From IMG/VR virus record IMGVR_UViG_3300028048_000042: a stretch of 64,000 bases of DNA; one strand, written 5' to 3'. Origin of the DNA: a virus. Taxonomy: Duplodnaviria > Caudoviricetes. Position 1 is the first letter of the stretch, and every line of letters begins with the position of its first letter. Below are positions 2,705-57,490 of the stretch, piece by piece. The notes beneath the pieces were generated by a model. It was not told the DNA's origin, ran no database searches, and was given only the letters and a program-made list of their open reading frames with translations. The position numbers and the translations under genes are program-made.

Positions 2705-2735
2705 AAAAAGCGTCACGTTTCGTGACGCTTTTTTT
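2705..2735 (+). terminator. Rho-independent terminator
   Basis: AAAAAGCGTCACG-TTT-CGTGACGCTTTTTTT perfect hairpin. Confidence 0.85.
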
Positions 2736-2794
2736 GTATGAATGTTATATGGTTGAGTGGGAAAAAGTATATTTTTCTTAGAGGTGACAGGGAC

Positions 2795-3832
2795 TTGAAA
2801 CATACAATACAGGTACATATGACAAATTCATGCAATTTAAAGTGTGAGTATTGTTACATAAAACAAAATTCATTATCGTTAACGCAAGATGTTCTTGAAC
2901 AACAGTTGGCAAAGGTCAAGGAATTGTCATATATGCTGAGTGGTTGTGATTGCGAATATGATGTTACTTATTTTGGTGGAGAGCCTTTATTGAAAATTGA
3001 CAATGTGTTAAAGTTTGATGAATATATTTGTGATAATTTTGATGTATGTCACAAATTTATGCAAACGAATGGTATGTTGTTGACAAAAGCAATCAAAGAA
3101 AAATTGGACGATAGAAAAATAAATATAGGAATTAGTTGTGATGGTTGCAATGACCCAAATCATAAAGAGGTCGAAAGATTATATCGAGAAAAAATAATCC
3201 ATATGCATCCTAAAATGATGGTTGATGGTTATAACGTTGGTTCGTTGATGGAAAATATAAAATATTTTTTTGATATGGCGATAAGAACTCAGTGCAGAGA
3301 TTTTTATATAGATGCTTCATTTGTTAAGGATAAAGTTTGGAATAAAAAATCATTAGAAATTCTTAAAACCCAATTAGACGAGTTAAATGATTTTATATTG
3401 TGGGTATATAAAAATTATAATTATTACTTAAAAATTGGATTTTTAGACAGAGTATTGCAAAACATTATCAAAGGGAAACGTGATTTTATTTGCTTCGCAG
3501 GCAGTACAGGATTTAGTATTACGCCAACAGGAGTGATATATCCATGTTCTAGGTTTTACAGTGCAAATGAATACCCTTTATATGATAGTAATAGAAATGA
3601 ATTTTTTTATGACAACATAGATTTCATTAAAAAGAATAATATAACAAAGAATGAAAAGTGTAATGAATGTGCGATAAACAAATATTGTAATCAAGGTTGT
3701 TATTATTCACAAATAAAAAATGGTGGCATTATTGACGAATATTGTGAAGTGCAAAAGATAGCTTTCCATAAAGTGACAGAGTTATACAAAAAATTCAGAA
3801 AATTCTATAATATAGATATAACGAGGATGTAA
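2795..3832 (+). CDS. Radical SAM/SPASM domain protein (maturase-like) 1
   Basis: CNLKCEYC, YFGGEPLL, QTNG; C-terminal SPASM Cys pattern CFAG...PC...CNECAINKYCNQGC...YC. TTG start at 2795 with GAGGTG RBS preferred over track start 2738. Confidence 0.9.
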   Translation: MKHTIQVHMTNSCNLKCEYCYIKQNSLSLTQDVLEQQLAKVKELSYMLSGCDCEYDVTYFGGEPLLKIDNVLKFDEYICDNFDVCHKFMQTNGMLLTKAIKEKLDDRKINIGISCDGCNDPNHKEVERLYREKIIHMHPKMMVDGYNVGSLMENIKYFFDMAIRTQCRDFYIDASFVKDKVWNKKSLEILKTQLDELNDFILWVYKNYNYYLKIGFLDRVLQNIIKGKRDFICFAGSTGFSITPTGVIYPCSRFYSANEYPLYDSNRNEFFYDNIDFIKKNNITKNEKCNECAINKYCNQGCYYSQIKNGGIIDEYCEVQKIAFHKVTELYKKFRKFYNIDITRM

Positions 3833-3834
3833 AT

Positions 3835-4275
3835 ATGCAAATTTTTAAACAGAATTCATCAATGCGTTCGAAAAAATTTAGAATTGACGATAGAGTTGTG
3901 AGGATTTGCGAAGCGAAATGGCGATACGATATTATTATTAATAATATTATTGCCATAAGTGATAATCAAAAATTAAAAAAGTATTTGCCAAAACGTATAG
4001 TATGTAATAGCAACAAAATAGAATATGATTATGTAGAAGGTAGAGATTTGGTAAAAAATTTCAACATCAAAGATAATTTTTTGTATGCTAAAATGCTATA
4101 TAATTTGTATGCAGAAAAAGTTTTTATTGCAGATATGCGAAGGGAAAACGTTATTGTTAATGAAGATGGGATTTGCATAATAGATTTAGATAGGCAACCA
4201 ATCTCTCGAAAAGAATTTTTGTTGTTTCATATTTGGGAGTTTGTTACTTTTGGATTTTTGGAAAATTTTAAGTAG
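3835..4275 (+). CDS. Small protein-kinase-like (RIO/Kdo/APH-like fold) protein 1
   Basis: YDYVEG hinge, catalytic loop IADMRRENVI (DxxxxN), metal-binding IIDLD; paralog of 9674..10165. Confidence 0.65.
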   Translation: MQIFKQNSSMRSKKFRIDDRVVRICEAKWRYDIIINNIIAISDNQKLKKYLPKRIVCNSNKIEYDYVEGRDLVKNFNIKDNFLYAKMLYNLYAEKVFIADMRRENVIVNEDGICIIDLDRQPISRKEFLLFHIWEFVTFGFLENFK

Positions 4276-4286
4276 GTGAGATATTT

Positions 4287-5345
4287 TTGAGAACGCCAAT
4301 GAGTGTATCAATCAATATGGGTAGTGGCTGTAATTTCCGTTGCAAATATTGTTTTGAGGTGAAAAACGGCGCAGTTAATCATCCAAAATCATTAACTGCA
4401 AAAACAAAAGAAAGAACAATTGAGGTTTTGCATTTGTTGCAAGAACTCCACGATTTGCGAATTGAATTTTGGGGTGGAGAACCGTCTGTATATTTCAAAG
4501 ATATAAAAGAAATCATTGATGAATTTACACCTTATGAAAATGTATCATTCTTTATGTATACAAATGGCTCTTTGGTAAGTCAGTATGCGGATGAATTGCT
4601 GGAAATTCATAAGAATGTTGGTCATAGATTTGAAGTGCAGGTATCTTATGATTATCAGAATTTGAGTAACAATCAGAGATTGCAATTAAATAAAACTGTT
4701 GAAGAAACAGATGAAATGGTTCGAGATGCAATTAAATTCTTCGATAGAAATGGATTCAAGTTTGGAACAAAAACGACTTGTACAATGAAGGACTTGGAAG
4801 AAAACATTTATGATATGTATCTAAATTATGAACAGTTAAATTCTGAATTGAAACATAAAGTTCCATTTGTTTGTACTCCTGATACTTTAGGTTCAGGTAG
4901 TATTGATTATGAAAAAATGCACGAACAGTTTGTAAAACTGATTAGATATTTTTTGAAGAATAAGAAATTCAAGCAAACAGGATTTTTGTGGTTTGACCAA
5001 AATGGTAATAAAGATTGTATGGGTGGAGCAAATTCATTCCAAATTGATATAGATGGCAGAGTAACGTATTGTCATGGATGTTTGTATATGAATGATAAGA
5101 TGTTTTATACAAATATTTTTGAGGATAATTTTTTGCATAAAATTGACCATAATTACCTTGTTGCAAATTCAAAATTTACAAAACCTGAACAATGCTTAAA
5201 TTGCAATTCGCAATTTTGCTTCAGATGTAATGCAATTAATAGTAAGGGAAATCCTGATAATTGGGATAAACCAAATTCACCTGAGGTATGCAAGCTGTAT
5301 CGAAAAATTTCTGAATATATAGAAGCATATTTAAGAATGAAATGA
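4287..5345 (+). CDS. Radical SAM/SPASM domain protein (maturase-like) 2
   Basis: CNFRCKYC, FWGGEP, YTNG; C-terminal DC...YCHGC...CLNCNSQFCFRC...VC. Confidence 0.9.
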   Translation: MRTPMSVSINMGSGCNFRCKYCFEVKNGAVNHPKSLTAKTKERTIEVLHLLQELHDLRIEFWGGEPSVYFKDIKEIIDEFTPYENVSFFMYTNGSLVSQYADELLEIHKNVGHRFEVQVSYDYQNLSNNQRLQLNKTVEETDEMVRDAIKFFDRNGFKFGTKTTCTMKDLEENIYDMYLNYEQLNSELKHKVPFVCTPDTLGSGSIDYEKMHEQFVKLIRYFLKNKKFKQTGFLWFDQNGNKDCMGGANSFQIDIDGRVTYCHGCLYMNDKMFYTNIFEDNFLHKIDHNYLVANSKFTKPEQCLNCNSQFCFRCNAINSKGNPDNWDKPNSPEVCKLYRKISEYIEAYLRMK

Positions 5346-5448: not shown

Positions 5449-6810
5449 ATGTCAATGACAGCAACTAAGTACATTTCAGCATTTTATCAAATCATAAAAG
5501 ACCCAACAGGCACTTTCCCTATTTGTAGACCATATGGTACAAGCGGAAACGATAAAGGGTATGATTTTGGTACTGCATTTTGGGATGGTACTTATTACAA
5601 AGCAAATGCAGATAATGCTAAAGGATTAGCAGGATTTAATAGACGAGATAAAATGTTGAGAGAGACATTTAGTACGGCTGAACCTATTACTAATGTGGAA
5701 TGGAATCAGTTGATTACGAAACTGAGACAGGAATTCGCAATTCGTTGCGAATTTAATGGTTCATATGTTCCATCTGTAAAAACTGTTGGTGTTACAGAAA
5801 CAGGTGATAGAACAAAATCAGGCTCTGACAATCATCAATTCTTTAGTCCAAAAGATGAAATCCTAAGAGAAGATTATAAGAATATCTATCGTGATATTAT
5901 GAGTTTGCTTGTATATGAAATTCCTGTTGAAGATGCCGTAAATAATCCTCGTCTTCCTATGGATAATTTCTCATTCAACCGCAAAAATACCGCAGGTGGA
6001 TATGGCGGTGATTCATCTAACTTGGATGTTAATCCTAACGCAGAAGCCATTAATGAAGGTACTCGTGTGGGGAATAACTGGTGGACAGGACAGAAAATGC
6101 GTGAATATATGTATAGACACGCAACAGGTGCTACTGCAAATAAGGTTATTACAAGTAATGCTAATAACGGTATTTTGTTGACTATGGGATTACCAAGTGA
6201 CATTTTAACTAATAAGGAATATGGTTATACTACATTTGGTAGCCGTAATGTTGCAGCATATATTCCTGGTTCTGATATGAATACAACAAAAACAGTAAGA
6301 AGTAGCAAAAGACCTTATGGTAATACAGACTATCTTGCAAAAACAGTTGATGAAAATGGCACAACTCATATTTTGAAAAATTCAAATGGATTTTATCAGG
6401 TTTCTCAGGAATTTAAGGATATGGTTGCAAAACGTAAACAGTTCTTGGGTGGTAATGTTAAGGTTAAGTGTACACGTACTGTTTTAACAGGTAAAGATGA
6501 ATATGGTATGCCAAAATATGTAACAGAAAAAGAAGAGCGTGAAATGCCACTTGTAACAGCGTTGACATCTGTTACTGTTTCAGGTAACTATACTGTAGAT
6601 ATTAGCGCAGATAGCGTAGGAAGATATTACATGGCTATGGTAAATCAGTTAGCAAGAACTTGTGTATGTAACTGTAATTATTGCTCTTGCTTTGGTCATG
6701 AAGCTAGTTGTATTTGTTATGTTGTAAAAGTTTCAGGTTGGTGCTATTCTTATCAGTATGATTTTGATGCAAACAGAGGTTGGATTTCACCTGAAACTGT
6801 TGCAAAATAA
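5449..6810 (+). CDS. Probable virion (tail fibre/collar-like) protein with Cys-rich C-terminus; putative rSAM substrate
   Basis: Gly/Thr/Asn-rich; structural-gene-like codon use (GGT, CGT); ITNVEWNQLITKLRQE helix; C-terminal CVCNCNYCSCFGHEASCICYVVKVSGWC. Confidence 0.6.
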   Translation: MSMTATKYISAFYQIIKDPTGTFPICRPYGTSGNDKGYDFGTAFWDGTYYKANADNAKGLAGFNRRDKMLRETFSTAEPITNVEWNQLITKLRQEFAIRCEFNGSYVPSVKTVGVTETGDRTKSGSDNHQFFSPKDEILREDYKNIYRDIMSLLVYEIPVEDAVNNPRLPMDNFSFNRKNTAGGYGGDSSNLDVNPNAEAINEGTRVGNNWWTGQKMREYMYRHATGATANKVITSNANNGILLTMGLPSDILTNKEYGYTTFGSRNVAAYIPGSDMNTTKTVRSSKRPYGNTDYLAKTVDENGTTHILKNSNGFYQVSQEFKDMVAKRKQFLGGNVKVKCTRTVLTGKDEYGMPKYVTEKEEREMPLVTALTSVTVSGNYTVDISADSVGRYYMAMVNQLARTCVCNCNYCSCFGHEASCICYVVKVSGWCYSYQYDFDANRGWISPETVAK

Positions 6811-6825
6811 GAAAGGATTATTTTC

Positions 6826-7098
6826 GTGGAAAAACAGATTACAGAAAAAGAAACAAAAGAATTGGAAACGCAGATTAGACTCTTGTGCGAGTATATGAGT
6901 ATGACAGAAGAGTTTATTAAGCCTATTGATGAAATTGCTTGCAAAGCAATTGATAATATCATTAGCATGACAATGATTAGCCTTGGACGAAAGCATGGGT
7001 TGGATTATACATCTAGTGATAAGTCAAAAATTGATGAAAAGAAAGAAAAATCAATTGATGACATTATGAAAGATATAAATGAAGGGACGAAAGATTAA
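6826..7098 (+). CDS. Small hypothetical protein
   Basis: GTG start with AAAGGA RBS; stop overlaps the next start (TAATG). Confidence 0.7.
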   Translation: MEKQITEKETKELETQIRLLCEYMSMTEEFIKPIDEIACKAIDNIISMTMISLGRKHGLDYTSSDKSKIDEKKEKSIDDIMKDINEGTKD

Positions 7099-7730
7099 TG
7101 GCACAGATGTTATTTTATTCAGGTATTATGAAACAGGGGGAGAAAAATTTCCTTGTTAATCCTTTTGAAAAAATTGTTGGTGAGCCTATTTGCTTGCAGA
7201 AAGATGAATATGTTAGTTTGACAGCAGAAGCATATGACAAATTGGTTAATGTTCTTGATTTAAAGTATCGTGAACCAATGTGCATTGTTTATGTTGAAGG
7301 TACAGTTGATGCTGATACGATGGTTAAACTTGAAGACTTGAAGTTCGTAGAGCAGAAACTTGATGCGACAGAGGAAGAAAAGTTGGATATGTACAAAGAA
7401 AAATCCATTCGCATTATGAATGAAATTATTTCAAGTCAGATGATGATTTCCAACTTTGAATTGTTCCATTTCTTTAAATTGAATCATTATCTTGAAGCAA
7501 AAGGCATTTTCATCATTGATGAAAATCGAGAGGAAGAATACATGAAGGTAATTGAAAGTGGCGATGCAGATACATTGCAGGTTCTTTCTGAATATCTTGA
7601 TGCGCTCGATGAATTTAATGTTATTGATGAAAAATATACAAAATATAAAGAGTATAAGGATAAGGTAAAAGCTGCTCAGACCGCAAAGGAAGTTGAGGAA
7701 GTATTTTATGAGTTTACAGCCAAACTATAA
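7098..7730 (+). CDS. Hypothetical helical protein, possibly a tail-fibre assembly chaperone
   Basis: Acidic helical protein ending KVKAAQTAKEVEEV, reminiscent of Tfa/DUF4376-like C-termini; translationally coupled. Confidence 0.45.
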   Translation: MAQMLFYSGIMKQGEKNFLVNPFEKIVGEPICLQKDEYVSLTAEAYDKLVNVLDLKYREPMCIVYVEGTVDADTMVKLEDLKFVEQKLDATEEEKLDMYKEKSIRIMNEIISSQMMISNFELFHFFKLNHYLEAKGIFIIDENREEEYMKVIESGDADTLQVLSEYLDALDEFNVIDEKYTKYKEYKDKVKAAQTAKEVEEVFYEFTAKL

Positions 7731-8532
7731 AAATATAGTTTATATGACTGATAAATCTTATCTTTTTCAAACTTACGTTTCAATGTTATCTTTGAAACAA
7801 AATAAACGCTGTAATGTGAGTTACAGCGTTTATTTATTATGTATTGAATTTGATGATTTGGGTAAGATTGAGTCATTAAACAGTGAAGATTTTCAAATCA
7901 AACCAATTTATATCAAAAAAAACATATTCAAAAGACCTGATAATGCAGGTGTTGTGTATTATAAGTTGTTATTGCATGAGTTGTTGGATTGCGATGTTGT
8001 TTTTCACATTGATTCTGATACGGTGGTCGTAGATGATGTATCGGATATTTTTGATATAGATATATCTGATTATTATTGTGGTGCAGTAAGAGACAAGATA
8101 AAAGGGTTTAGATATTTTAACGCAGGGAACGTGTTGTTTAATTTGAAAAAAATTAGAGAAGATGTTGTAAATGATACAGACACAATGTATGTTTATTATG
8201 ACAGGTTAAATAAACAGTTGCAAGATGAAAAATGTTTTCTTTGGGAACAAGATGTTTTAAATGAAGCATTTAAAGGGAAAATTAAATATATTCATTATGG
8301 ATATAACTTTTTAGTAAACACATATAGCAAATATGGATTTAATGAATTGGTGAGATTGTATGGAGAACCTGTAAAATCAGAAAATTTAAAAATTTTGCAT
8401 TATGCAAGTTTCCCAAAACCTTGGAAAAGACCCAATTTGTTTGGGCAAATTTGGAAGATGTATGCAGAAGAAACTGCAAATAAGGAAAAAGAAAAAATGA
8501 TATTGAAGGTGGCTTGTCGTGAATTTAAATGA
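7708..8532 (+). CDS. Glycosyltransferase family 8
   Basis: YYKLLLHELL..VFHIDSD (DxD), YFNAGNVLFNL, EQDVLN, ILHYASFPKPW; ATG 7708 with GAGGA RBS. Confidence 0.9.
   Translation: MSLQPNYKNIVYMTDKSYLFQTYVSMLSLKQNKRCNVSYSVYLLCIEFDDLGKIESLNSEDFQIKPIYIKKNIFKRPDNAGVVYYKLLLHELLDCDVVFHIDSDTVVVDDVSDIFDIDISDYYCGAVRDKIKGFRYFNAGNVLFNLKKIREDVVNDTDTMYVYYDRLNKQLQDEKCFLWEQDVLNEAFKGKIKYIHYGYNFLVNTYSKYGFNELVRLYGEPVKSENLKILHYASFPKPWKRPNLFGQIWKMYAEETANKEKEKMILKVACREFK
7800..7835 (+). terminator. Terminator-like hairpin embedded in the 5' part of the GT8 gene
   Basis: AAATAAACGCTGTAA-TGTGAG-TTACAGCGTTTATTT, 15-bp perfect stem. Confidence 0.55.
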
Positions 8533-8572
8533 TAATAATATGTTTTTGTATCAGTTTATCTTGGGGACTGAT

Positions 8573-9661
8573 ATGAAAGTAAAAACTCGAAACCAAGACA
8601 CTATTTTAGTTACTTGCAATATTGTATCAAGGGAAGACAAAAATTATTTGTGGGGAGCAGAGAAGTATTGCGTTAAAATTTGTAAAGCGTTGTCAAAAAA
8701 ATACAAAGTGCATTTGTTTCAACATGCAAAGGATTTTCTTGAATTGGATAATGTAGTTGTGCATTCTAATATAGATAATTTCTTTTCAAAGGAAAGAATG
8801 AAAGTAACTGCAAATAAAGTTAAGGCAGTTGCACCAAAATGTATTCTTTGTAATGCAGGCAGTGGACAGCAAGCATTGTATTGGACTATTATTGCAAAGA
8901 TGGTAAATGTACCAATTATAATGTTCTTTCATAATGAACCTGAATATATGTTAAAAACAATTAGCAATATATGGGGCATGAATTACATTAAGAACCAAAA
9001 AGTTGTAAAAAACTCGCAAAAACTGTATGATATGGTCTTGGAAAATTGCAACAAATTAGCATTTTTGTTACCTCAGTATATTGATAAACGATATGAGAAG
9101 AAATCATATGTTTTTTACAATTGTGTAGAATTACCTGAACACGTTGATGTTGAACAAGAAAGACAGAACATCTTGTATGTTGGTCGTATAAATTCGGATG
9201 TTAAACGTACAGATTTACTAATAGATGCAGTAAAAGATACGGAATATCCATGTTATATTTGTGGATATAATTATTATGGTCAAGGCTATATAGACATGAG
9301 TTGGTATGAAGATACAAATATCCATTATGAAGGGTATCAGGAAAATGTAGCTGATTATTATAAAAATGCTAAAGTTCTTGTAATCCCATCTTTATTGGAA
9401 GGTTTGCCAACAGTTGCTTTAGAAGCTATGTCATATGGTGTTCCTGTGCTTGGATTCAAAGAATGTAAATCAATAAATGATATAGTAAAAGATGGATATA
9501 ATGGTTGGGTAATTGAAAATGATTTGAAGGGGAAAATATCTGAAATTATGTCCATTGAAGATATGACAGAAATTAGAAAAAATTGTATAGAAGAATCAAA
9601 AAAATATAGCATAGAAAAAATCATGGTTGAAATTGAAAAAGCGATAAAATCATGTCGGTAA
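8573..9661 (+). CDS. Glycosyltransferase family 4 (GT-B)
   Basis: WGAEKY, ILYVGRI...K, VIPSLLEGLPTVALEAMSYGVPV, IVKDGYNGW; ATG 8573 preferred over 8519. Confidence 0.9.
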   Translation: MKVKTRNQDTILVTCNIVSREDKNYLWGAEKYCVKICKALSKKYKVHLFQHAKDFLELDNVVVHSNIDNFFSKERMKVTANKVKAVAPKCILCNAGSGQQALYWTIIAKMVNVPIIMFFHNEPEYMLKTISNIWGMNYIKNQKVVKNSQKLYDMVLENCNKLAFLLPQYIDKRYEKKSYVFYNCVELPEHVDVEQERQNILYVGRINSDVKRTDLLIDAVKDTEYPCYICGYNYYGQGYIDMSWYEDTNIHYEGYQENVADYYKNAKVLVIPSLLEGLPTVALEAMSYGVPVLGFKECKSINDIVKDGYNGWVIENDLKGKISEIMSIEDMTEIRKNCIEESKKYSIEKIMVEIEKAIKSCR

Positions 9662-9673
9662 AGGGATATTGAT

Positions 9674-10165
9674 ATGAAAATTTTAACAACTGATAAAAAT
9701 AAAAATTTATTAAGTAAAGACACTGACTTTAAATTTGTTAGTAATGGGTGTGTTTATAGGTTTGTCAGTGAAACAGTTAAACAAGATATATTGATAAATT
9801 ATCATAATATTGTTGATAAAAATTTACAAAAATATTTACCGAAAAATATTTGTATTAATCGCAATATGGTTACTTATCAATATGTGGAAGGTAGAGATTT
9901 GGAATATTGCTATTCAATAAGAATGAATTATTTATATGCAAAAATGTTGTTCGAGCTTTGGAAATCAAATTGTTATATTTTTGACCTTTCTCGAAGAAAC
10001 GTTATTTTTGATGGAGAAAAAATTGTCATTATAGATTTGGATTGTAAGCCAAAAGCAAATTGTACAAAATGGCAATATGCAAAAGAATGTTTGTATCGTT
10101 TTAGAGATACAATGGTAAATTGTGGGACTATGATAAAAAGATTGGAAAGATTTTTATGCGAGTGA
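9674..10165 (+). CDS. Small protein-kinase-like protein 2
   Basis: KYLPKNI, YQYVEGRDL, IFDLSRRNVI, IIDLD; paralog of 3835..4275. Confidence 0.65.
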   Translation: MKILTTDKNKNLLSKDTDFKFVSNGCVYRFVSETVKQDILINYHNIVDKNLQKYLPKNICINRNMVTYQYVEGRDLEYCYSIRMNYLYAKMLFELWKSNCYIFDLSRRNVIFDGEKIVIIDLDCKPKANCTKWQYAKECLYRFRDTMVNCGTMIKRLERFLCE

Positions 10166-11055
10166 ATTTAATTTATTTTTTGTATGAGTTAAATGGAGCT
10201 TATACTTCATTTGAAGACTTGTTCTACAATTTGAAGCGTTTTACAGATAATGATGTTCGATTTATTATTTTATATGAAGATAAGGATGTGCTTGTTCGAT
10301 TTAAAGAATATTTGGCTTTCGGAACAGGTATTTGCTATTTACAAATTGAAAAAGAAGGGTATCATAATATGAAATTTCCTATCAAATACGATATTAAGGG
10401 AGATATAAATGTTATTAGTACCGAAATTATTCAGTTGGAATGGCATGACAGATTTGTACAACATTCAAACAAAACATATTTGCTATATCCTGCCTTTGTA
10501 TATAAAGATGAAGGACTAGACCACAGCATTTTTGAGTATCAAATGAATTATATTAAAGAACATAATGTTTTGACAATTTGTAATGAATTTAATGCAAAGT
10601 ATGTGGATAATAGTTTTGTTTGGTATATGAAGTTTTCACCTGAACGAATTGAAAAAATAAAAAAGCTTGTTAGTTTTGAAAATGATACTTTGGTAGCAGA
10701 AGATTATTACAAGAATAAAATGGAAGGTAGAAATATAAAACCTTTTTCGTATAAAAAATATGAATATTATAGATATGACAAGAAAAATGATTTCAACAAC
10801 TATACTGATAATGGAGCAAGATATTATGAAAATATCGGTAAATTAATGTTTGAATTTGTTTTTCTTGGCAAAGAATCGACATATTCACCAAAGAATAAAA
10901 AGTTCTTTGATGGATTGAGTGAATTTATGAGATATATTGGATATGATGACGAAAAGGAATATACTTTTACTAAAGATGATATGCCATTGTTAAAAAAGAA
11001 ACTGTATATGGATAAAGATGATGAAATATTAAAACTCTTTAGAGAAGAAGGTTAA
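10156..11055 (+). CDS. Hypothetical protein, possibly a diverged GT-B-like transferase
   Basis: ORF coupled to its neighbours; N-terminal beta-strand then NGAYTSFEDL loosely resembles GT-B N-termini. Confidence 0.4.
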   Translation: MRVNLIYFLYELNGAYTSFEDLFYNLKRFTDNDVRFIILYEDKDVLVRFKEYLAFGTGICYLQIEKEGYHNMKFPIKYDIKGDINVISTEIIQLEWHDRFVQHSNKTYLLYPAFVYKDEGLDHSIFEYQMNYIKEHNVLTICNEFNAKYVDNSFVWYMKFSPERIEKIKKLVSFENDTLVAEDYYKNKMEGRNIKPFSYKKYEYYRYDKKNDFNNYTDNGARYYENIGKLMFEFVFLGKESTYSPKNKKFFDGLSEFMRYIGYDDEKEYTFTKDDMPLLKKKLYMDKDDEILKLFREEG

Positions 11056-11058
11056 AAA

Positions 11059-12651
11059 ATGAAAATTTTAGGTATTCAGTGTTATCAGGATTATAATGTT
11101 TGTTATTATGATACAGAAACAAAAGAGTTAAAATATATTGAGTTAGAGAAATTGTTGAAGAGAAAACATTTTTCTTTTCATAGTGAAAAACTCGATTATA
11201 TGCATGAAATTGATAGGATATATAATGACAACCTTAGAAATAATCTTTATAAGACGCAGAAAATTATTCACAAAGAATTGGGCGTTGATAGATTTGACCT
11301 AATTTGTTGGAATTATACACGATTTGAAGATGGATATTTGAAAAAAGAATCTTTTGATTTTATTAAAATGTTGGAAAAATGTGATATTCAAAAGTTCCAC
11401 CATCAAGAAAACCATGTATTACCTGCAATTGTGGAAAATCATTTACAAGAAGCATTGTGTGTCTCCGTTGATGGTAAAGGTGATGGAAACCATGCAATTT
11501 ATACTTGGAAAGATGGCAAATTGACAAAGTTGTTTCAGGAGCATAGATTTTCTTATGGTATGTTCTATGAAGTCCTTTCTGCATATTTCTTAACAGATGA
11601 CCATGTGTACTATCAAGGTGCAGAAGGTAAATTCATGGCGTATGCAGGGTTATCTAATAACTTTGTAAAAATTGTGGATATAGATTATTTTATGGATAAG
11701 ATTAAAAATACTGATTGGAATAATTGGGAAGAAAAAGTAAAAATTCAAAATTATATTTTTAATTTTTTAGATACACAATCTCAGTATTTTGATAAAAAAG
11801 ATTTAGCATATACCATGCAAAAATTGTGGTTGGATTCTTTGATTCGTGATATTGCAAAATATCGTCACGGACAAAGGAATTTAGTTATTTCAGGCGGTTG
11901 TGCTCTTAATTGTATGCTTAATTATTTGTTGATAAAAACAGGTTGGTTTGAAAATGTATACTTCACACCAATTGCTTCTGATGTTGGTCAGTCGTATGGA
12001 GCTGTATTGAATTACTTGCTGAGATATAAGCCTGAAGAAATCAAACATATTAATACGAGACAATATTCTGTTACCGAAATGTATAGAGATAAAGATTATT
12101 TTAAATCAATTGAATCTAATTTTGCAGATATTAATGTAAATAAAATTGTTGATGCTTTGGCTGATGGGAAAGTAATTGGTGTTTGTCGTGGCAACATTGA
12201 GATGGGGCCTCGTGCTTTGGGCAATCGTAGTATTTTAGCGGCACCATTTAAGGCAGAAATGAAAACGAAGCTAAATGAATTAAAAGGAAGAGAACAATAT
12301 CGACCTTATGGTATTCTTGTCCCTCGTGAAGAAATGGGCAAATATTTTGATATTGATGTAGATGCAACATATATGAATGTTTTAGCTTATTGCAATGATT
12401 CAAAATTATTACTTGGTGCGCAACATCATGATAAAACAGTTCGTGTGCAGACTGTGGATAAAAAGAATAATCCGTGGCTTTATAATTTATTAATGGCGTT
12501 TAAGAAAAGAACAGGTGTACCTATTCTTATCAATACTTCATTCAATGATAGTGGTTTGCCTATTTTTAATTATGTTGAAGATATGTATAGAATGTATCAA
12601 GAAAAATTAGATGGATTGGTTATTGATGAAAAAATGATTATGAAGGATTGA
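11059..12651 (+). CDS. O-carbamoyltransferase, NodU/CmcH/TobZ family
   Basis: HHQENH, VDGKGD, EGKFMAYAG, SGGCALN, SDVGQSYGA, EMGPRALGNRSILA, KGREQYRPY, HDKTVRVQTV, LINTSFN. Confidence 0.93.
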   Translation: MKILGIQCYQDYNVCYYDTETKELKYIELEKLLKRKHFSFHSEKLDYMHEIDRIYNDNLRNNLYKTQKIIHKELGVDRFDLICWNYTRFEDGYLKKESFDFIKMLEKCDIQKFHHQENHVLPAIVENHLQEALCVSVDGKGDGNHAIYTWKDGKLTKLFQEHRFSYGMFYEVLSAYFLTDDHVYYQGAEGKFMAYAGLSNNFVKIVDIDYFMDKIKNTDWNNWEEKVKIQNYIFNFLDTQSQYFDKKDLAYTMQKLWLDSLIRDIAKYRHGQRNLVISGGCALNCMLNYLLIKTGWFENVYFTPIASDVGQSYGAVLNYLLRYKPEEIKHINTRQYSVTEMYRDKDYFKSIESNFADINVNKIVDALADGKVIGVCRGNIEMGPRALGNRSILAAPFKAEMKTKLNELKGREQYRPYGILVPREEMGKYFDIDVDATYMNVLAYCNDSKLLLGAQHHDKTVRVQTVDKKNNPWLYNLLMAFKKRTGVPILINTSFNDSGLPIFNYVEDMYRMYQEKLDGLVIDEKMIMKD

Positions 12652-12657
12652 TATTAA

Positions 12658-13416
12658 TTGAAACATATACCTTTGATTGAATATCACCTAACAAACCATT
12701 GCAATTTAAACTGTAAGGGGTGTGCTCATTTTGCACCTCTTGCAGAGCCTTGGTTTGCAGATGTAAAGCAATTTGAAAAAGATTTAAACAAATTAACAGA
12801 TAAAGTAATTATTGATGAATTGATTATGTTTGGTGGAGAACCATTATTGCATCCAACAATATGTGATTTCTTTGAAATGGCAAGAAAAATTTTACCACAT
12901 GCAAAAATTTGTGTTTTAACGAATGGAGTTAATTTATTGAAAGAGTTGCCTAAATTAAAGGATTCTCTTGTTAAGAATGAAATTATTGTTGATATAACAA
13001 GTTATCCGATTAACGTTAATTATAAAATGACATTGAAAATGTTAAAAGCATTTGGAGTAAAATATAAAATTTATAATGATTTAGAACCAATAAAAACATT
13101 AAGAAAACATAAATTATCTCATGAAAAGAAAGAAAATACATGGGATTGCTTAATGATAAATTCTAAATCTGTGCAGTTGAAAGATGGGAAATTGTATATT
13201 TGTCCAATACAAGCGTATATTGATATTTTTAACAAATATTTTAATGAGAATTATGAGGTTGACGAATCGGATATTTTGACTCTTACAGATGATACAACAG
13301 ATGATGAAATCTTAAATATGTATTATCACAAAAATGAATTTTGCAAATTTTGTAGAGAACCAATTGTAGGAAATAAATATTCTACATCAAAAAGAGATAA
13401 GCAAGAATGGACGTAA
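12658..13416 (+). CDS. Radical SAM protein (short, twitch-like auxiliary Cys), paralog A
   Basis: CNLNCKGCAHFAP, FGGEPLLHP, LTNG, DC...ICP...FCKFC. Confidence 0.88.
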   Translation: MKHIPLIEYHLTNHCNLNCKGCAHFAPLAEPWFADVKQFEKDLNKLTDKVIIDELIMFGGEPLLHPTICDFFEMARKILPHAKICVLTNGVNLLKELPKLKDSLVKNEIIVDITSYPINVNYKMTLKMLKAFGVKYKIYNDLEPIKTLRKHKLSHEKKENTWDCLMINSKSVQLKDGKLYICPIQAYIDIFNKYFNENYEVDESDILTLTDDTTDDEILNMYYHKNEFCKFCREPIVGNKYSTSKRDKQEWT

Positions 13417-13431
13417 AATTAAAAAAGTGTT

Positions 13432-14271
13432 ATGATTAGAGAGAATTATGCAATGGATATAAAATATTGTTTTAAGACTCAAATCGTGGATGAATGTAAC
13501 TTGAATTGCTGTGGGTGCGACCATTTTGCACCCATAGCTGATTCTTGGCATCAACCGTTGGGAGATTTTATTAAAATGATGAAAACTCTTAAAAATACAG
13601 TTGGTGATAGCATAAAAGAAATTGAGTTATACGGTGGTGAACCATTATTACATAAGGATTTATATAGAATGCTTATGGCGTGTGAAATTATATTTCCTCA
13701 AACGGTAATATTATCAATAGAAAGTAATGGTTTATTGCTTGATAGTTTTTTACAAAAGAATAAATCTTTGCAAAAAGATACGAGAATTGAATATCAGATT
13801 ACAGAATATGCAACAACACAAGGAATTGTGGATAGATTAAAAAATAAATATCCTAATTTAGTGATTTTTAGGTCTAAGCATACACCTTTAGAATTAAACA
13901 CAAATAAAAGCTGTTGGAAAGATTGTATGTTTAATATAAATCTTCAGTATGAGGAAAATGAAGAAAGACAATGGGAAATATATAAGCATTGTTACTGTAA
14001 AAGCTTTGAAGAACATAGCGTTTGTTTGCGAAATTGGAAAATTTCTCCATGTCCTTTAGTTATGTGTATAGATATATTTGATGGTTACTTTGGCGAACAT
14101 TTTTATAATGAGGAAAATTATGTCAAAGTGACAGAATCATTAAATAAAGATGATTTGTATAAAATGGCGCATGTTCCTTGTGAACATTGTAAACGCTGTG
14201 GGAATGTAGTATATGGATTTCCTTATAAAATGTCAGAGAAGAAAAAATCTGAATGGGTGGTAGAAAAGTGA
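13432..14271 (+). CDS. Radical SAM protein, paralog B
   Basis: CNLNCCGCDHFAP, YGGEPLLH, ESNG, PCP...CEHCKRC. Confidence 0.88.
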   Translation: MIRENYAMDIKYCFKTQIVDECNLNCCGCDHFAPIADSWHQPLGDFIKMMKTLKNTVGDSIKEIELYGGEPLLHKDLYRMLMACEIIFPQTVILSIESNGLLLDSFLQKNKSLQKDTRIEYQITEYATTQGIVDRLKNKYPNLVIFRSKHTPLELNTNKSCWKDCMFNINLQYEENEERQWEIYKHCYCKSFEEHSVCLRNWKISPCPLVMCIDIFDGYFGEHFYNEENYVKVTESLNKDDLYKMAHVPCEHCKRCGNVVYGFPYKMSEKKKSEWVVEK

Positions 14272-15581
14272 TAAAGGATTTAATAACAAAACAAGGAATT
14301 ATGATTGATATAACCAATGCTTGTGTTAATCAGTGCGGTAATTGTATGCGATTTTGTGGTTATCATGATGACCCATTTTTTATGGAATTTGAATATTTTA
14401 AAAAAGTTGTTGATAGCTTGCACGATTTTGATGGGCAAATAGGTATAATTGGCGGTGAGCCAACATTACATCCTGATTTTGTTAAAATGGTTGAGTATAT
14501 AAGAGATACATATCCGCATAAAAAAGAAAAAGGATTTGTAAGACAACCAATCTCTGATGTTAATGGATATATTTTTAATAATAATGTGGATGATGTTGGC
14601 AAATTCAAGTTGTTTACTTGTGCAAAGACGCAACAATTTTATGATAATTTTGAGTTAATAGATGATGTATTCGAATCATTTAGATTTAATGACCACAGTC
14701 AAGGAACAAGACATTTTACAACCTTGGTTGATTATAAAGATTTGGGGTTGTCTGATGGCGAATTTAAAATGTTGGAAAATGATTGTTGGGTACAAAATTA
14801 TTGTTTTGCTACGGTAACGCCTAAAGGTGGTTTCTTCTGCGAAATGGCAGGAGCTTTAGATATGCTTTATGGTGGAGATGGCGGTTTCGAAATTAAAGAT
14901 GGTTGGTGGAAACGTTATCGTAAAGATTTCGAGTGTCAAGAACAATGGTGTGCACATTGTGGTGCAAGATTAGGTTTGCCAATGAGATTGGATTCAGAAA
15001 ATAAAGACTACGTTTCTAAAAGCGTTGTCGATAATTTAAAGCATACCAAACGCATACGTAATAATGATTATAAAATAATAACCAAAGAAGAATATCAAAA
15101 AAATTGGATGAAATGGCGAGAAGAAAAATCTAAAAAATTAGATTTAGTTGATGAAATTTGTGTTGATAATAATAATCCATTTTTTAGACCTCAACACATA
15201 TCATTTGTTAATAAGTATGATGATATATTGAAGCAAGATGATTGGGTTATATGTGGGGATTATGCAGGTAAAGAAAAATATGTTCTTGATTTTATGAATA
15301 ATCATTTTTTTAATATAGGGTGTTTGTACTATATGGAAGATGAACCGATATTTGCGGTTAATGTAAAATCTAATGCATTGAAGGATTTAACGAAGATTGA
15401 TATGAATCCTTGGGGATATTATGATTTACAAAAAATAGTGAAAATAAATAATTTTGAAGATGATGTATTAAAAGCAACAGATGAAGTTATGTCTGTTAGG
15501 GGAATTATGGATGTAAGTGTTGCAAAGCAAAAAGCAGAATTAATGAAAAAGATAAGGGATAAAATGAAATGTTCGACATAA
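14268..15581 (+). CDS. Radical SAM protein (different family) with C-terminal extension
   Basis: IDITNACVNQCGNCMRFC, IGGEPTLHP, CWVQ..C, FFCE, WCAHCG; GTG start overlapping the previous stop (GTGA). Confidence 0.85.
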   Translation: MIKDLITKQGIMIDITNACVNQCGNCMRFCGYHDDPFFMEFEYFKKVVDSLHDFDGQIGIIGGEPTLHPDFVKMVEYIRDTYPHKKEKGFVRQPISDVNGYIFNNNVDDVGKFKLFTCAKTQQFYDNFELIDDVFESFRFNDHSQGTRHFTTLVDYKDLGLSDGEFKMLENDCWVQNYCFATVTPKGGFFCEMAGALDMLYGGDGGFEIKDGWWKRYRKDFECQEQWCAHCGARLGLPMRLDSENKDYVSKSVVDNLKHTKRIRNNDYKIITKEEYQKNWMKWREEKSKKLDLVDEICVDNNNPFFRPQHISFVNKYDDILKQDDWVICGDYAGKEKYVLDFMNNHFFNIGCLYYMEDEPIFAVNVKSNALKDLTKIDMNPWGYYDLQKIVKINNFEDDVLKATDEVMSVRGIMDVSVAKQKAELMKKIRDKMKCST

Positions 15582-16378
15582 AAACCATTTTAAAAAGCAA
15601 AATTTGGATGAAAGAAAATCTTGGCGAAATAGATATTCCTGTTGTGAATCATTGTAATCTTAATTGTGCAAGCTGTGACCATTTTGCTCCATTAGCGGAA
15701 AAGCATTTTTATAAATTGGAAAACTATATTAAAAATCTTGATAGACTTAAAGCCTTGTTAAAAGATAAAAAAATATATAGAATTAATTTGATGGGTGGAG
15801 AGCCGTTGTTACATCCTCAATTAATTGATTTTTGTAGAGTAACAAGAGAAAAATTTTCAGATACAAATATATTCATTACAACCAATGGCATTTTATTGCC
15901 ACAGTGGGAGAAAGAAAATGGGCATATTTTAAAAAAGCTAAATATAAGAATTTTGGTTACAGAATACAACAAAGATAAAAATTTCTATAAAATGAATTTG
16001 CTGAAAGAAAAAAGCAGTCAAAAAAGTTATCAGTATTGCAATAATCGTAATATAAATGTACTTGAAATAATTGATAATGTCGATGAAGAGTTTCACGAGT
16101 TTTATTCCGATTTCCCATGTACGCAGTTAAATGAAAATGGAGATTATTTTTCATGTATTATTCCTGCAAATATTGAAATCTTTAATAAACATTTTAAAAC
16201 AAAATATGAACTGATAGAAGGTCAAGACTTTGTTAACATTTTTAACATTGATGATTTGTCAGAAATGATTAGGATTACGCAATGCAAAAAAATACCATTT
16301 TGTGATTATTGTGGGAAGAAAACTGTCGTGAAATGGAAAGGAAGTAAAAATGATGAACAAGAATGGGTTGAACAGTAA
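15569..16378 (+). CDS. Radical SAM protein, paralog C
   Basis: CNLNCASCDHFAP, MGGEPLLHP, TTNG, FCDYC. Confidence 0.88.
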   Translation: MFDIKTILKSKIWMKENLGEIDIPVVNHCNLNCASCDHFAPLAEKHFYKLENYIKNLDRLKALLKDKKIYRINLMGGEPLLHPQLIDFCRVTREKFSDTNIFITTNGILLPQWEKENGHILKKLNIRILVTEYNKDKNFYKMNLLKEKSSQKSYQYCNNRNINVLEIIDNVDEEFHEFYSDFPCTQLNENGDYFSCIIPANIEIFNKHFKTKYELIEGQDFVNIFNIDDLSEMIRITQCKKIPFCDYCGKKTVVKWKGSKNDEQEWVEQ

Positions 16379-18191
16379 TAATCCATTAAATTTGATGAAT
16401 AATATTTATAAATTTGTAAAAGGACGAAGAGCAGAATTGTTGTTGGTTGAGTTACCGACTGTCAATGAATTGTCAAGAAAAACAGAATTGCAAGTTATAA
16501 GTAGTATGATTTGTGGAGATATGGTATATAAAGATTTGTCCACGCATAATAATGAATGTGAAATGTTCTTTGATGAATATAACAAAAAGATGTTTAGAAA
16601 GGTTATTTATGATAATAAAGACCTATACGAAAAGTGTTTTGATGATTTTTCTTCAGATTATATTGATAAAATTTGTGCATGTGACCCTGATTTAATTCAA
16701 AATAATAATTATTTTTGTATGGAAGACTACGAATCTGATTTTATGAATATTAAGGATGGAGTTCGAAAAACAGCAAATCAAATTGATGATAATAATCATA
16801 ATATTTTTGTGTTTGGTAACTCAACAACTTTTGGTTATTATGTTGCTGACAATGAAACTATTGCAAGTTTTTTACAAAAATATGTTGCACCATATAAATA
16901 CAATGTTTACAATTATGCTACAATTAATGATACGTTGTTAAATATTTATAACCGTGTTATTAATACAGGTATTTGTGATAATGATATTGTGGTTATTGGT
17001 ATTCCAAAGGGATTTCTTGGGAAAGATGCGTTTTTGTTTCCTCATGTTGATACAACAGATGGATTTTATATTCATACTGAAAAAGAAAACTTGATTGACC
17101 GTGCACATTTGACAGCTTATTGTCATGATTGGATTGCTGAAATGATTTTCAACAATATTAAAAAAGATATAGATTGTTTCGATGTGAAAGATGAAACTGT
17201 AGAATCGCAGGTAAAAATGCTTATTTCAGATTTCAGAAGAGAATGTGAAATGTTTGATGATTCTTTGCAGGTGGGTGCTTCTGTAATGAGTTGTAACCCA
17301 TTTACATCAGGTCATAGGCATCTTGTGGAAATTGGCAGTAAAATGTTTGATTATTTTGTCGTGTTTTTGATGCAAGAAGGAATGAATCTTGTTTTCGATA
17401 AAGCAGAATGTGAAAATTTGGTTCGCGTAGGAGTAGAAGATTTAGACAATGTAATTGTTGTACCAATGTCCGATATGTTTACTTATCAAACATTTTGGCC
17501 TGAATACAATGATGTTGCACTTAGACATAGTAAAAATTATATAGGATTGAATACTTATAATCTTTTAAATGTTGTAGGTAAAGCATTCAAAAGGCTTAAT
17601 ATCAAACATTTTCTTTGCGGTATCGAAACAGATGATAACATCACAAGACAACATATTGTTCAAGCAAAAACGGTATTTCCACAAAATGACATTAATGTTA
17701 TTTGTATTCCTCGCAAACAAATGAAAAATAATAAATTGAGCATTAGTGGTACGGAATGTCGTAAGATGTTAGCACAAGGTGAATATGATAAATTAAACGG
17801 ATTTCTTCAACCACAAATTGTTGATTATATTCGAGAAAATAAATTGACTGTTCAGCAACCAAAATTTCCAACTAAGATGATTGTGGAGTTGCTTGAAAAA
17901 GAATCAAAGAGAATTTTAACAAAAAACAAAAAAGATTTGAATTTGCTTATTGTTGATAAAGAAGATTGCTTGAAGAATATTAAAGCTTTGAGAAAAATTG
18001 TAAAAGGTTGTTCGAAAGAGGAATTACTGTCAATTGTTCAATTACATATTCAAGCATCTGTTTGGGCAGGTTACTTATATTTAATAAATGTAGAAATGGA
18101 TGAAGACCTGTACAATATTATTATGAGTAAATTGAAAGATGATGAATATAAGCAGAAATTGAGGGATAAACATGATGGAGTTGCAAACTAA
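16350..18191 (+). CDS. SGNH/GDSL-like domain fused to a CitC (citrate lyase ligase)-like HIGH nucleotidyltransferase
   Basis: IFVFGNSTTFG (GDSL block I-like) and IDRAHLT (DxxH); GASVMSCNPFTSGHRHLVE and ISGTECRKML match CitC-type NPFTxGH and ISASxVR motifs. Confidence 0.7.
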   Translation: MMNKNGLNSNNPLNLMNNIYKFVKGRRAELLLVELPTVNELSRKTELQVISSMICGDMVYKDLSTHNNECEMFFDEYNKKMFRKVIYDNKDLYEKCFDDFSSDYIDKICACDPDLIQNNNYFCMEDYESDFMNIKDGVRKTANQIDDNNHNIFVFGNSTTFGYYVADNETIASFLQKYVAPYKYNVYNYATINDTLLNIYNRVINTGICDNDIVVIGIPKGFLGKDAFLFPHVDTTDGFYIHTEKENLIDRAHLTAYCHDWIAEMIFNNIKKDIDCFDVKDETVESQVKMLISDFRRECEMFDDSLQVGASVMSCNPFTSGHRHLVEIGSKMFDYFVVFLMQEGMNLVFDKAECENLVRVGVEDLDNVIVVPMSDMFTYQTFWPEYNDVALRHSKNYIGLNTYNLLNVVGKAFKRLNIKHFLCGIETDDNITRQHIVQAKTVFPQNDINVICIPRKQMKNNKLSISGTECRKMLAQGEYDKLNGFLQPQIVDYIRENKLTVQQPKFPTKMIVELLEKESKRILTKNKKDLNLLIVDKEDCLKNIKALRKIVKGCSKEELLSIVQLHIQASVWAGYLYLINVEMDEDLYNIIMSKLKDDEYKQKLRDKHDGVAN

Positions 18192-19083
18192 ATTTGCAAT
18201 AATTATACCAACATATAATCGCCCTGACAAAATTAAAAAAGCTATAAGGTCTGTCAAACAACAGACCTTTTTTAATTGGGAGATATATATAGTGGATGAT
18301 TGTTCAGATGTACAATATTCTTCTGAAATTTGGGAAGACATAAAAGATAAAGTTAAATATTATAGATTAGATAAAAACAGAGGGCATTGTTATGCAAGAA
18401 ATTTCGCATTACAACAAATTGAAGATGAAGTTTGGGTGAAATATCTTGACGATGATGACGAAATTTTACCAACATGTTTGGAAAATTTGAATAATTTCAT
18501 TGTTAGAAATCCAAACGTTAATGTAATATCGACAAATTATATTAAGCGGTTTGATACATATGAGAAGATTTGTGAGACAAATTATCATAAATACAGTGTG
18601 TTTTCAGGGAAGTTAGATACTTGTGCTATATGTCATAAGAAAGATTTGTATGAGCAAATTGGTGGTTGGGATGAAAGACTTTATCGTATGGCAGATGATG
18701 ATTTTTTCTTTAATTACATTTCAAATGGTAATTATGGCTATTGTAATGTTGTGACTTCAGTGTTTTATGATACGTCAGATGAAGATAGAGTAACCAATAT
18801 ATGTTCAAATTTAAAATATTGTAACATTATTGCCGAAAAATATGATTATTTTAAAAATAATCGTTGCTTGATTTTAACAAACAATGAGGGTAATATAATG
18901 GACGAGAATTATAATATAGAATCTTTCATGCCTTTTGATGTATCGAATACTATAAAGAAAGGATATAAATACATTATAAAGTATGATAAAAATGATTCTT
19001 TAAATGATATTTTTCAAAAAAAATATCATTTAGAAAAATTACCTATACGTGTTGGCAATAGCATTCTTATAAAAGGAGTTTGA
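18172..19083 (+). CDS. Glycosyltransferase family 2
   Basis: IIIPTYNR, IVDDCS, NRGHCYARN, YLDDDD, IGGWDE, ADDD. Confidence 0.92.
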   Translation: MMELQTKFAIIIPTYNRPDKIKKAIRSVKQQTFFNWEIYIVDDCSDVQYSSEIWEDIKDKVKYYRLDKNRGHCYARNFALQQIEDEVWVKYLDDDDEILPTCLENLNNFIVRNPNVNVISTNYIKRFDTYEKICETNYHKYSVFSGKLDTCAICHKKDLYEQIGGWDERLYRMADDDFFFNYISNGNYGYCNVVTSVFYDTSDEDRVTNICSNLKYCNIIAEKYDYFKNNRCLILTNNEGNIMDENYNIESFMPFDVSNTIKKGYKYIIKYDKNDSLNDIFQKKYHLEKLPIRVGNSILIKGV

Positions 19084-19086
19084 AGT

Positions 19087-20124
19087 ATGAATGTTTTTAT
19101 GCTTAATTATAAAAGCAAAGAAAGGTCAATAGCAATACATCATAATTATACTTTTCAATTAAAGGATATGAATGATGTTGAAGATATGAAGAAAAAAGCA
19201 AGTGAATATAAAGAATATTTGTTTTATTGCATTAAAAATAAAGATAAATGGTGGTATAGATTCTTCAAAAAGAAACGACCTGAATGGTTGGTAATCAAGA
19301 AAAAATATTGGAATACAGACATAAAATATTTTATTAAAGAAGTAATTTCGGCGTTGAGGATTTATGAAAAGAAAATTCCGTATATCAATTTGATGGCTAC
19401 TCAATATTGCAACTTGAATTGTAAAGGGTGTGGAGCGTTGATGCCTTTATACAATAAAAGTAAAGAACGTAAATTTTGGGAAGTAGAACAATTAGATAAA
19501 GTTCTAAAACGTTATAGTGAGATTTTTAATGGTGAGGATGAATATTTAAATACAATTGATATTGTAGGTGGAGAACCATTATTACATCCAAACATTTGTG
19601 AGTTTTGTTCGACTGTAAGAAAATATAATCCTAAATCTAAAATTGTTATTATAACAAACGGTTTGTTGCTAGATAAAATGCCAAAAGAATTTTATGAAAT
19701 GGTTTTAGAAAATGATATTAATATAGCATTATCTGTATATGGTGATGATATTTATTTTGAAAAATACAATATAGGGTATAATAAGGAAAACTGTGACGAA
19801 GTTCGTTGCGATAAATGTAGTGGACACTTGCCAATTGTTGATTATAAGAAGAGAACTGTTTCTTTTGGTGGTGTGCAATTATTACCTGATGGGAAATTAT
19901 GTTATTGTGCTTGCGCAGGTGTAGATAAGCTTAATGAATGTTTTGGTACTGATTTCAAAACTGTTGAAAATTCCGATTGGATTGATATTTTTACTCATAC
20001 AAAAGAAGATATATTGGAAATGTTTCAAAAACCGTATTGTGAATTTTCAAAATATTGTAATAAACGTGATTTGTTCCCTTGGGATATTTCTAAATGTAAA
20101 AGTGACGAATGGTTATTTTTGTAA
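19087..20124 (+). CDS. Radical SAM protein, paralog D, with N-terminal extension
   Basis: CNLNCKGC, VGGEPLLHP, ITNG, LCYC, YCEFSKYC. Confidence 0.88.
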   Translation: MNVFMLNYKSKERSIAIHHNYTFQLKDMNDVEDMKKKASEYKEYLFYCIKNKDKWWYRFFKKKRPEWLVIKKKYWNTDIKYFIKEVISALRIYEKKIPYINLMATQYCNLNCKGCGALMPLYNKSKERKFWEVEQLDKVLKRYSEIFNGEDEYLNTIDIVGGEPLLHPNICEFCSTVRKYNPKSKIVIITNGLLLDKMPKEFYEMVLENDINIALSVYGDDIYFEKYNIGYNKENCDEVRCDKCSGHLPIVDYKKRTVSFGGVQLLPDGKLCYCACAGVDKLNECFGTDFKTVENSDWIDIFTHTKEDILEMFQKPYCEFSKYCNKRDLFPWDISKCKSDEWLFL

Positions 20125-57454: not shown

Positions 57455-57490
57455 GATGTAAAAATTTTTAATTAAAGGAGGTGAATTAAA

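Follow-up and report, generated by a model that had tools for sequence, protein, structure and literature searches.

Two radical SAM/SPASM enzymes retained with Cys-tailed, putatively fibre-type proteins in large phages: a candidate thioether cross-linking module

Introduction

Thioether cross-linking of a whole protein by radical S-adenosylmethionine (SAM) enzymes has been shown in very few cases, QhpC and, in 2026, CrpA. CrpA is a Cys-rich protein of 28.8 kDa from an archaeon; its C-X-X-Q/D repeats receive ranthionines from the SPASM enzyme CrpC, in a report that does not mention phages (PMC13692751). Among the papers we searched, none described a virus particle with radical-SAM thioether cross-linking, and literature searches for the Cys motif described below and for radical SAM modification of virion proteins by phages returned nothing relevant. 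Here we analyse a 64,000-nucleotide stretch of Caudoviricetes DNA (IMG/VR record IMGVR_UViG_3300028048_000042; hereafter the window), in which a 453-amino-acid protein with a Cys-dense C-terminal tail is encoded beside two radical SAM/SPASM enzymes.

The window is a one-strand phage segment of 31% GC whose sheath and tube genes lie at 30.7-34.3 kb. It comes from a giant phage akin to Bacillus phage G, which is the best cultured match of its sheath (41% identity), and relatives are found on contigs of up to 405 kb. The system in question is a four-gene module of two enzymes (rSAM-A and rSAM-B), the Cys-tailed protein and a 210-amino-acid helper. Neither enzyme has the recognition element (RRE) of maturases of peptides that are ribosomally synthesized and then post-translationally modified (RiPPs). 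On the plus strand of the window, the relevant features are:

2738..3832, +, rSAM-A, radical SAM/SPASM enzyme without an RRE (CX3CX2C, seven invariant SPASM Cys)
4287..5345, +, rSAM-B, radical SAM/SPASM enzyme without an RRE, phrog_1802, CX2CX4CX2C variant (alignment, family scan)
5449..6810, +, 453-amino-acid protein with the Cys tail, presumed to be the substrate and a virion protein of fibre type (11 homologs, alignment)
6661..6759, +, its eight-Cys tail, residues 405-437 (invariant columns in an 11-row alignment)
7098..7730, +, 210-amino-acid helper, phrog_25260, presumed assembly chaperone or substrate presenter (homologs behind Cys-repeat genes)

Results

The 453-amino-acid protein has Cys at positions 26, 100 and 341, and then at 405, 407, 409, 412, 414, 421, 423 and 432. 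An earlier, sequence-only reading of the window had counted three Cys in the first ~400 residues and then eight in 28 (6661-6744), and the letters bear this out, the exact bounds being residues 1-404 and 405-432. At the window's Cys frequency of 1.5%, such a cluster has a probability of ~7e-9 per position and 1.5e-4 window-wide; the other main-frame proteins of the window never exceed five Cys per 28 residues. All eight tail Cys are invariant in the 11-row alignment, as are N408, N410, Y411, E418, W431, Y424 and Y433, and invariant columns make up 70% of the tail versus 10% of the body across the 11 homologs. An exhaustive profile search added just a short form of ~255-256 amino acids and fragments, and candidate substrates of this subfamily measure 255-525 amino acids. 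The short form (~255 amino acids, same tail; L118:6353-7120, L119:7386-8153 and L122:3453-4223) is the best candidate for expression and folding. Searching cultured phages by tblastn with the protein or its tail gave nothing usable.

Both enzymes had been called full SPASM proteins, which their sequences confirm: each has CX3CX2C and seven invariant auxiliary Cys (C252, C270, C308, C311, C317, C321 and C336 in rSAM-A; C244, C262, C303, C306, C311, C314 and C335 in rSAM-B). Each also carries the GGEP motif and scores above the PF04055 cut-off. Their Pfam SPASM scores (19.1 and 16.8 bits) fall under the cut-off of 21.5, and rSAM-A passes TIGR04085 (40 vs a cut-off of 27). The two enzymes are 23% identical to each other. 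CteB is the closest Protein Data Bank (PDB) relative of both (for family A, 5WGG, E 1e-34, at 123 bits, followed by anSME at 73 bits), and in the NCBIfam scan both enzymes score best with models of ranthipeptide maturases (PapB for rSAM-A), far below cut-off. Homolog alignment and the ribosome-binding site suggest that rSAM-A starts at a TTG at 2795, behind AGAGGTG.

A DNA motif scan of viral contigs recovered many proteins of 150-530 amino acids that end in (C-T-C-N-C-N-Y)n. The body of these Cys-repeat proteins consists throughout of three short helices, and E-x3-R is invariant in the first of them. We scored the enzymes of their loci with hidden Markov models built from the window's phage clade only. 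Full-length enzymes beside unrelated Cys-repeat genes reached 144-176 bits for A and 96-150 bits for B, while other radical SAM proteins in these loci scored at most 51 bits. The clade's GT8 and GT4 glycosyltransferase, carbamoyltransferase, kinase and 90-amino-acid genes had no matches beside Cys-repeat genes.

We then reversed the test by retrieving loci by enzyme, which at 110 bits or more gave 24 distinct groups. The strict motif lay nearby in 17 of these, a variant Cys tail lay nearby in two, and two had the motif elsewhere in the genome; the rest comprised one probable assembly collapse (L182) and two short fragments. Among 167 loci with enzymes below 90 bits, none had the strict motif. 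Retrieval by helper yielded 39 distinct loci, with a Cys-dense gene in 29, enzyme A in 28 and enzyme B in 29. In a quick, midpoint-rooted tree of the 130 best-scoring of 177 rows, A and B formed separate, nearly all viral clades with matching sub-groups (approximate likelihood ratio support, SH-aLRT, 97 and 100). These counts carry the caveats that the retrieval alignments included motif-adjacent enzymes and that loci of the window's clade are related, not independent.

The best indication of a functional link is that the module genes are retained even where they lie apart. Both enzymes occur in 15 of 15 Firehammervirus records; in CP220 and CPt10 they lie ~140 kb apart, with the helper close to A and the repeat gene close to B, and in genome G009 enzyme A and the helper lie 39 kb from B and the substrate. 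The proposed co-occurrence of the Cys tail with these two SPASM enzymes is supported across unrelated phages. In the near-complete genomes checked, the motif never appeared without a radical SAM enzyme, and all had enzyme A.

There were several apparent counter-examples. The L182 locus lacks its repeat block, with a frameshift, and keeps the body and the Peptidase_S74 end described below, so that the repeat probably collapsed in assembly. Enzyme B of CP21 is split, likely by sequence error because the neighbouring RNA ligase is split in the same record, and the loci L218, L231, L013 and L085 are cut by contig ends. The motif without an enzyme was seen in L056 and L064, which are 13% and 9% complete and stand as possible exceptions.

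Other loci extend the picture. At L048:4721-7285 and L068:7386-9443, three or four tandem repeat-protein paralogs stand behind one enzyme pair. In L287 and L288 the module sits on short contigs that were assigned to Thermoplasmata and Sulfurovum genomes, perhaps viral DNA binned in error. Phage SPASM enzymes of more distant kinship lie beside other Cys-rich proteins at L246:7555-14856, L238-L240, L247, L263 and L278; with Cxx, Cxxx or alternating Cys and up to 78 Cys, these are separate systems with the same logic.

The AlphaFold2 model of the 453-amino-acid protein (pLDDT, the predicted confidence score, 54.9) has three confident helices and a beta insertion at residues 336-367, and leaves the Cys tail unfolded at pLDDT <50:

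5686..5745, +, helix 1, residues 80-99, with invariant E95/R99 (weak hhalign match to the E-x3-R helix)
5866..5919, +, helix 2, residues 140-157 (AlphaFold2 secondary structure, pLDDT 73-81)
6607..6657, +, helix 3, residues 387-403, from which the Cys tail continues (alignment, AlphaFold2)

When we compared families with the Cys parts removed, hhalign aligned the E-x3-R helix of the repeat proteins with residues 76-101, with E95/R99 in register; the match is weak (score 22.6 vs a maximum of 15.1 in 30 column shuffles, P 7e-4). The repeat-family body also matched the 256-amino-acid short form P0014 (E 2e-7) and P0002 (E 1e-4). Helix 3 matches the position of an I-x-A-x3-N helix that precedes the repeats in relatives, and the 453-amino-acid protein has a CxCNCN[YF] unit directly behind an amphipathic helix near its C-terminus. 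The top Foldseek row for the model, the endoNF chaperone (E 0.42, TM 0.07), was noise. We consider it very likely that the 453-amino-acid protein is a substrate of the enzyme pair.

Three tail types accompany this pair: heptad repeats, the eight-Cys form of the window and a second eight-Cys form. The last has four CxC pairs followed by the start of a Peptidase_S74 domain, with the same enzyme pair and helper (L374:6980-7768, L377:5988-6815, L378, L381, L386, L393 and L412). In each of the three types, CxC is followed almost exclusively by Asn, Asp, Gln, His, Tyr or Phe: N/D/Q in 98% and N/D in 97% at the heptad positions, N/Y/F/H in 100% of 60 in the 453-amino-acid subfamily, and N/H in 100% of 26 in the third type. 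Heptad position 7 is Tyr or Phe in 91%, and the window's tail has one invariant CX3E (C414-E418). Known ranthisynthases attack activated beta (or gamma) C-H bonds of Asp, Asn and Glu. The presence of residues with activated C-H bonds after CxC is in keeping with a bond between Cys i and residue i+3, although the residue rule could partly reflect packing or metal ligation.

We propose a model in which the 453-amino-acid protein would be a late, fibre-type protein with a three-helix core, clade-specific insertions and the eight-Cys tail. The two SPASM enzymes would abstract hydrogens from tail residues and join these to Cys sulfurs, giving thioethers of the ranthionine type; in the simplest case, the leading Cys of each CxC would be bonded to the third residue after it. 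Acceptors would be Asn, Asp, Gln, His, Tyr or Phe, with a possible link from C414 to E418. The helper might act as an assembly chaperone or make up for the missing RRE by presenting the substrate. At the mature C-terminus, the modified tail would form a rigid knot resistant to reduction, which would serve structure or docking and not host-range choice. The sequence-only reading had proposed a tail that is thioether-linked or loaded with an Fe-S or metal cluster, and its core idea stands as a strong genomic prediction, with the cross-links themselves predicted.

Evidence on location comes from relatives. In 21 of 37 repeat proteins the sequence continues into S-D-x-x-L-K, the start of Peptidase_S74, as the full domain or its first 13 residues, and this motif keeps the Ser/Lys dyad spacing of endoNF. 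In tailspikes, S74 serves as a trimerisation chaperone that cleaves itself, and the Ser and Lys of its dyad are five residues apart (PMC8326128). With self-cleaving S74 behind the repeats, the Cys block would therefore become the mature C-terminus. Sixteen of the 21 proteins with an S74 start (L021 and others) end 13-16 residues past the last repeat, leaving a Ser...Lys stub only.

Campylobacter phage IBB_35 offers a further pointer. Its gene 3-9, a repeat-type relative that carries Cys repeats, is among 38 proteins of purified virions, at a mass spectrometry coverage of 2.6%, and its helper homolog 2-36 and both radical SAM enzymes are not on that list (PMC3322345). Several module loci also have fibre-, baseplate- or portal-gene neighbours. 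Together, these data suggest that the Cys-repeat family probably consists of virion fibre proteins. The earlier assignment to a tail fibre or collar gains support from relatives, by S74 and one virion proteome; the 453-amino-acid protein itself is, by analogy, likely to be located in the virion.

Other arguments of that reading fared less well. A receptor-binding tip found no support: host-range tips are usually variable, the opposite of this invariant tail, and we reject a receptor-specificity tip because the tail, the most invariant part of the protein, is more constant than the body. The appeal to an anaerobic habitat found no support either; the module also serves phages of microaerophilic Campylobacter. 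Codon usage had been said to resemble that of the sheath and tube genes rather than the enzymes. The direction is right and the effect modest, with a sheath/tube vs enzyme log-odds of +0.03 for the 453-amino-acid gene, -0.46 and -0.16 for the two radical SAM genes and -0.17 to -0.26 for large tail genes; because the latter score like enzymes, the measure reports expression level and not virion location.

Helper homologs lie directly downstream of Cys-repeat genes in ~20 unrelated loci, and all 25 family members match phrog_25260. The helper model (pLDDT 89.5) has a small beta domain and a helical bundle. Its earlier description as Tfa-like survives as a weak lead only (phrog_1348, E 1e-4, in 3 of 25 members), beside weak DUF4376/HI1402-like leads (DUF4376-like Atlas clusters at 0.83-0.88). 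A Pfam scan of the 25 members gave no match, and fold searches returned generic three-helix bundles only (Z up to 8.8). No PqqD-like match was among the top rows for the model; the helper may even so be a functional stand-in for an RRE.

Within the window's clade, all loci with enough flank share the order rSAM-A, optional insert, rSAM-B, Cys-tailed protein, 90-amino-acid open reading frame (ORF), 210-amino-acid helper, GT8 and GT4, but because these phages are kin this synteny alone proves little. Neighbouring features are:

2705..2733, strand not assigned, terminator-like hairpin upstream of the module, 13-pair stem flanked on each side by A/T runs (consensus match only)
3835..4275, +, kinase-like ORF, an insert and not core (weak WaaY/RfaY matches)
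6826..7098, +, clade-restricted 90-amino-acid ORF (12 of 12 clade loci, no match outside)
7800..7835, +, terminator-like hairpin past the helper, within the start of the GT8 gene, 16-pair stem (consensus match only)

The two hairpins bracket the unit, and a promoter scan gave a chance-level result (40 vs 32.6). Two SPASM enzymes and a kinase had been placed upstream of the Cys-tailed gene; all three genes are there, in the order radical SAM, kinase-like, radical SAM. The kinase-like gene is present in 3 of 12 clade loci and in none outside, being elsewhere absent or replaced by a DNA methyltransferase, and we reject it as a core part of the module. The downstream glycosyltransferase block was likewise rejected as a conserved partner, as GT8, GT4 and carbamoyltransferase lack matches beside the repeat family. 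This tailoring block (7708-20124) comprises GT8, GT4, a second kinase-like ORF (9674-10165), a carbamoyltransferase, four short radical SAM genes, a CitC-like nucleotidyltransferase fusion, GT2 and another radical SAM gene. Conservation of this block extends over the clade and does not follow the wider Cys-tail module; different blocks of short radical SAM genes are frequent downstream in heptad loci.

Elsewhere in the window, positions 1-1038 encode the C-terminal part of a ~900-amino-acid protein that in the clade always lies upstream of rSAM-A and has no family match. A 515-amino-acid ORF at 1152-2699 with weak anti-repressor matches, present in few relatives, is a probable insert. A resolvase-like and transposase-like pair at 56894-58711 resembles an IS607-type element by sequence start only.

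Discussion

On balance, we lean towards a reading in which a virion protein of fibre type receives Cys thioethers from the RRE-less enzyme pair, as the genomic pattern suggests. A broader idea is more tentative: many unrelated large phages may use such a pair and a helper to lace the fibre C-terminus with multiple thioethers, partly within one chain and partly linking the chains of a trimer, as an enzyme-built covalent scaffold. The eight-Cys tail might then, just as tentatively, be the non-repetitive, S74-free form.

A number of observations weigh against the thioether-tail reading. S74 is absent from all 15 tail variants of the 453-amino-acid subfamily, and the virion mass spectrometry support is a 2.6% coverage of a distant relative. 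The protein has zero family matches in Pfam, PHROG and NCBIfam, its model has no significant fold match in Foldseek and VIA searches, and outside the Cys motif the repeat-family body matches it only at E 0.08. On the enzyme side, rSAM-A stays under the maturase cut-offs (PapB 107/340, ScfB/CteB 78/425, QhpD 77/453), with rSAM-B lower still. Neither enzyme has an RRE: in nearly all members only 5-15 residues precede the first Cys of the cluster, which leaves no space for one. SPASM relatives do other chemistry too, as with anSME, the next PDB match. CxC-rich tails would also suit metal binding, and one 22.7-kb fragment (L056) has a repeat gene and no such enzyme.

If the pair does act on the tail, it might do so by other chemistry: Cys-aromatic or C-C links involving the conserved Tyr/Phe/Trp, sulfur-to-alpha-carbon bonds, formylglycine, or one reaction for each enzyme. 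That two such divergent enzymes are both kept is in keeping with this, as are the aromatic preference at heptad position 7, the invariant Y411, Y424, W431 and Y433, and the rank of anSME, which oxidises Cys to formylglycine, as second PDB match of family A. We nevertheless regard it as unlikely, given the higher score of CteB, the lead of ranthipeptide models for both enzymes and a tail dominated by Cys adjoining Asn/Asp. Less likely still is an unmodified metal-thiolate tail holding Zn or Fe-S, perhaps on a three-fold axis, with the enzymes loading the cluster or acting elsewhere, for example on glycosyl-tailoring products. CxC pairs do recall metallothioneins, phage tail parts bind Fe or Fe-S, the tail has no AlphaFold2 fold without ligand, and a block of GT8, GT4, carbamoyltransferase and short radical SAM genes lies downstream. 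However, it is A, B and the helper that find matches beside the repeat family, not GT8, GT4 or carbamoyltransferase, and the widely varying repeat number and strict Asn/Asp rule are more than a thiol ligand set would require.

We give the least credence to a protein that is no virion part at all, a RiPP-like precursor or intracellular metal handler whose tail acts in the cell or is cut off. It would suit the lack of a structural match, the position of the gene among enzyme genes ~24 kb from the sheath gene, and the precedent of CrpA, which is non-viral and may bind metal. The S74 fusions, the virion listing and the fibre, baseplate and portal neighbours of relatives argue for a place in the particle instead, and no peptidase or transporter was recognised among the neighbouring genes scanned.

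Should the thioether reading be correct, a function could be assigned to two of the radical SAM genes of Campylobacter phages, whose number, 11-12, has been described as highly unusual (PMC2853527). These phages are cultured, making the claim testable on virions. Modified Cys tails would also explain poor peptide coverage in virion proteomics, and a pair of RRE-less enzymes that accept long proteins as substrates would be of use for protein stapling.

Several described systems share parts of this arrangement. The same module, dispersed, is present in Firehammervirus as CPt10_1891 and IBB_35 3-9 (phrog_26958) with a phrog_1802 enzyme; a 21-bp repeat and many radical SAM genes are recorded there separately and not connected, and Cys content is not mentioned (PMC2853527). 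S74 tailspikes and fibres of the endoNF type resemble those relatives that end in S74 or its first 13 residues behind Cys repeats, in contrast to the S74-free 453-amino-acid subfamily.

The S74 clients described so far are not known to have a Cys repeat or maturase. The CXXX-repeat system (TIGR04114/PF27846, maturase TIGR04115; a weak Atlas lead at 0.76) also sets a Cys-repeat target beside a SPASM enzyme, but with Cxxx spacing, whereas the phage tails have CxC/CxCxC; the maturase score is 47 vs 350, and TIGR04114 matched neither the 453-amino-acid protein nor 21 relatives. CteB/SCIFF (5WGG) and PapB/PapA are the nearest relatives of both enzymes by solved structure and hidden Markov model, seven-Cys SPASM enzymes with adjacent Cys-rich substrates, which differ in acting on short, leader-bearing peptide precursors and in having an RRE.

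Two further systems modify whole proteins. In QhpD/QhpC, radical-SAM thioethers (Cys-Asp and Cys-Glu) rigidify a subunit of a protein complex, although that subunit belongs to a bacterial enzyme (quinohemoprotein amine dehydrogenase gamma) and the reaction is RRE-dependent. CrpC/CrpA of Methanococcus voltae (TIGR04463) likewise places a SPASM enzyme beside a full-size protein with a C-terminal Cys-rich region. It is archaeal and cellular, with one RRE-bearing enzyme and 17-residue repeats, whereas the phage module has two RRE-less enzymes, a CxC tail and a helper, and rSAM-B scores 34 bits vs a cut-off of 525. Not a member of any curated RiPP family, the module would work like CrpC/CrpA or QhpD/QhpC.

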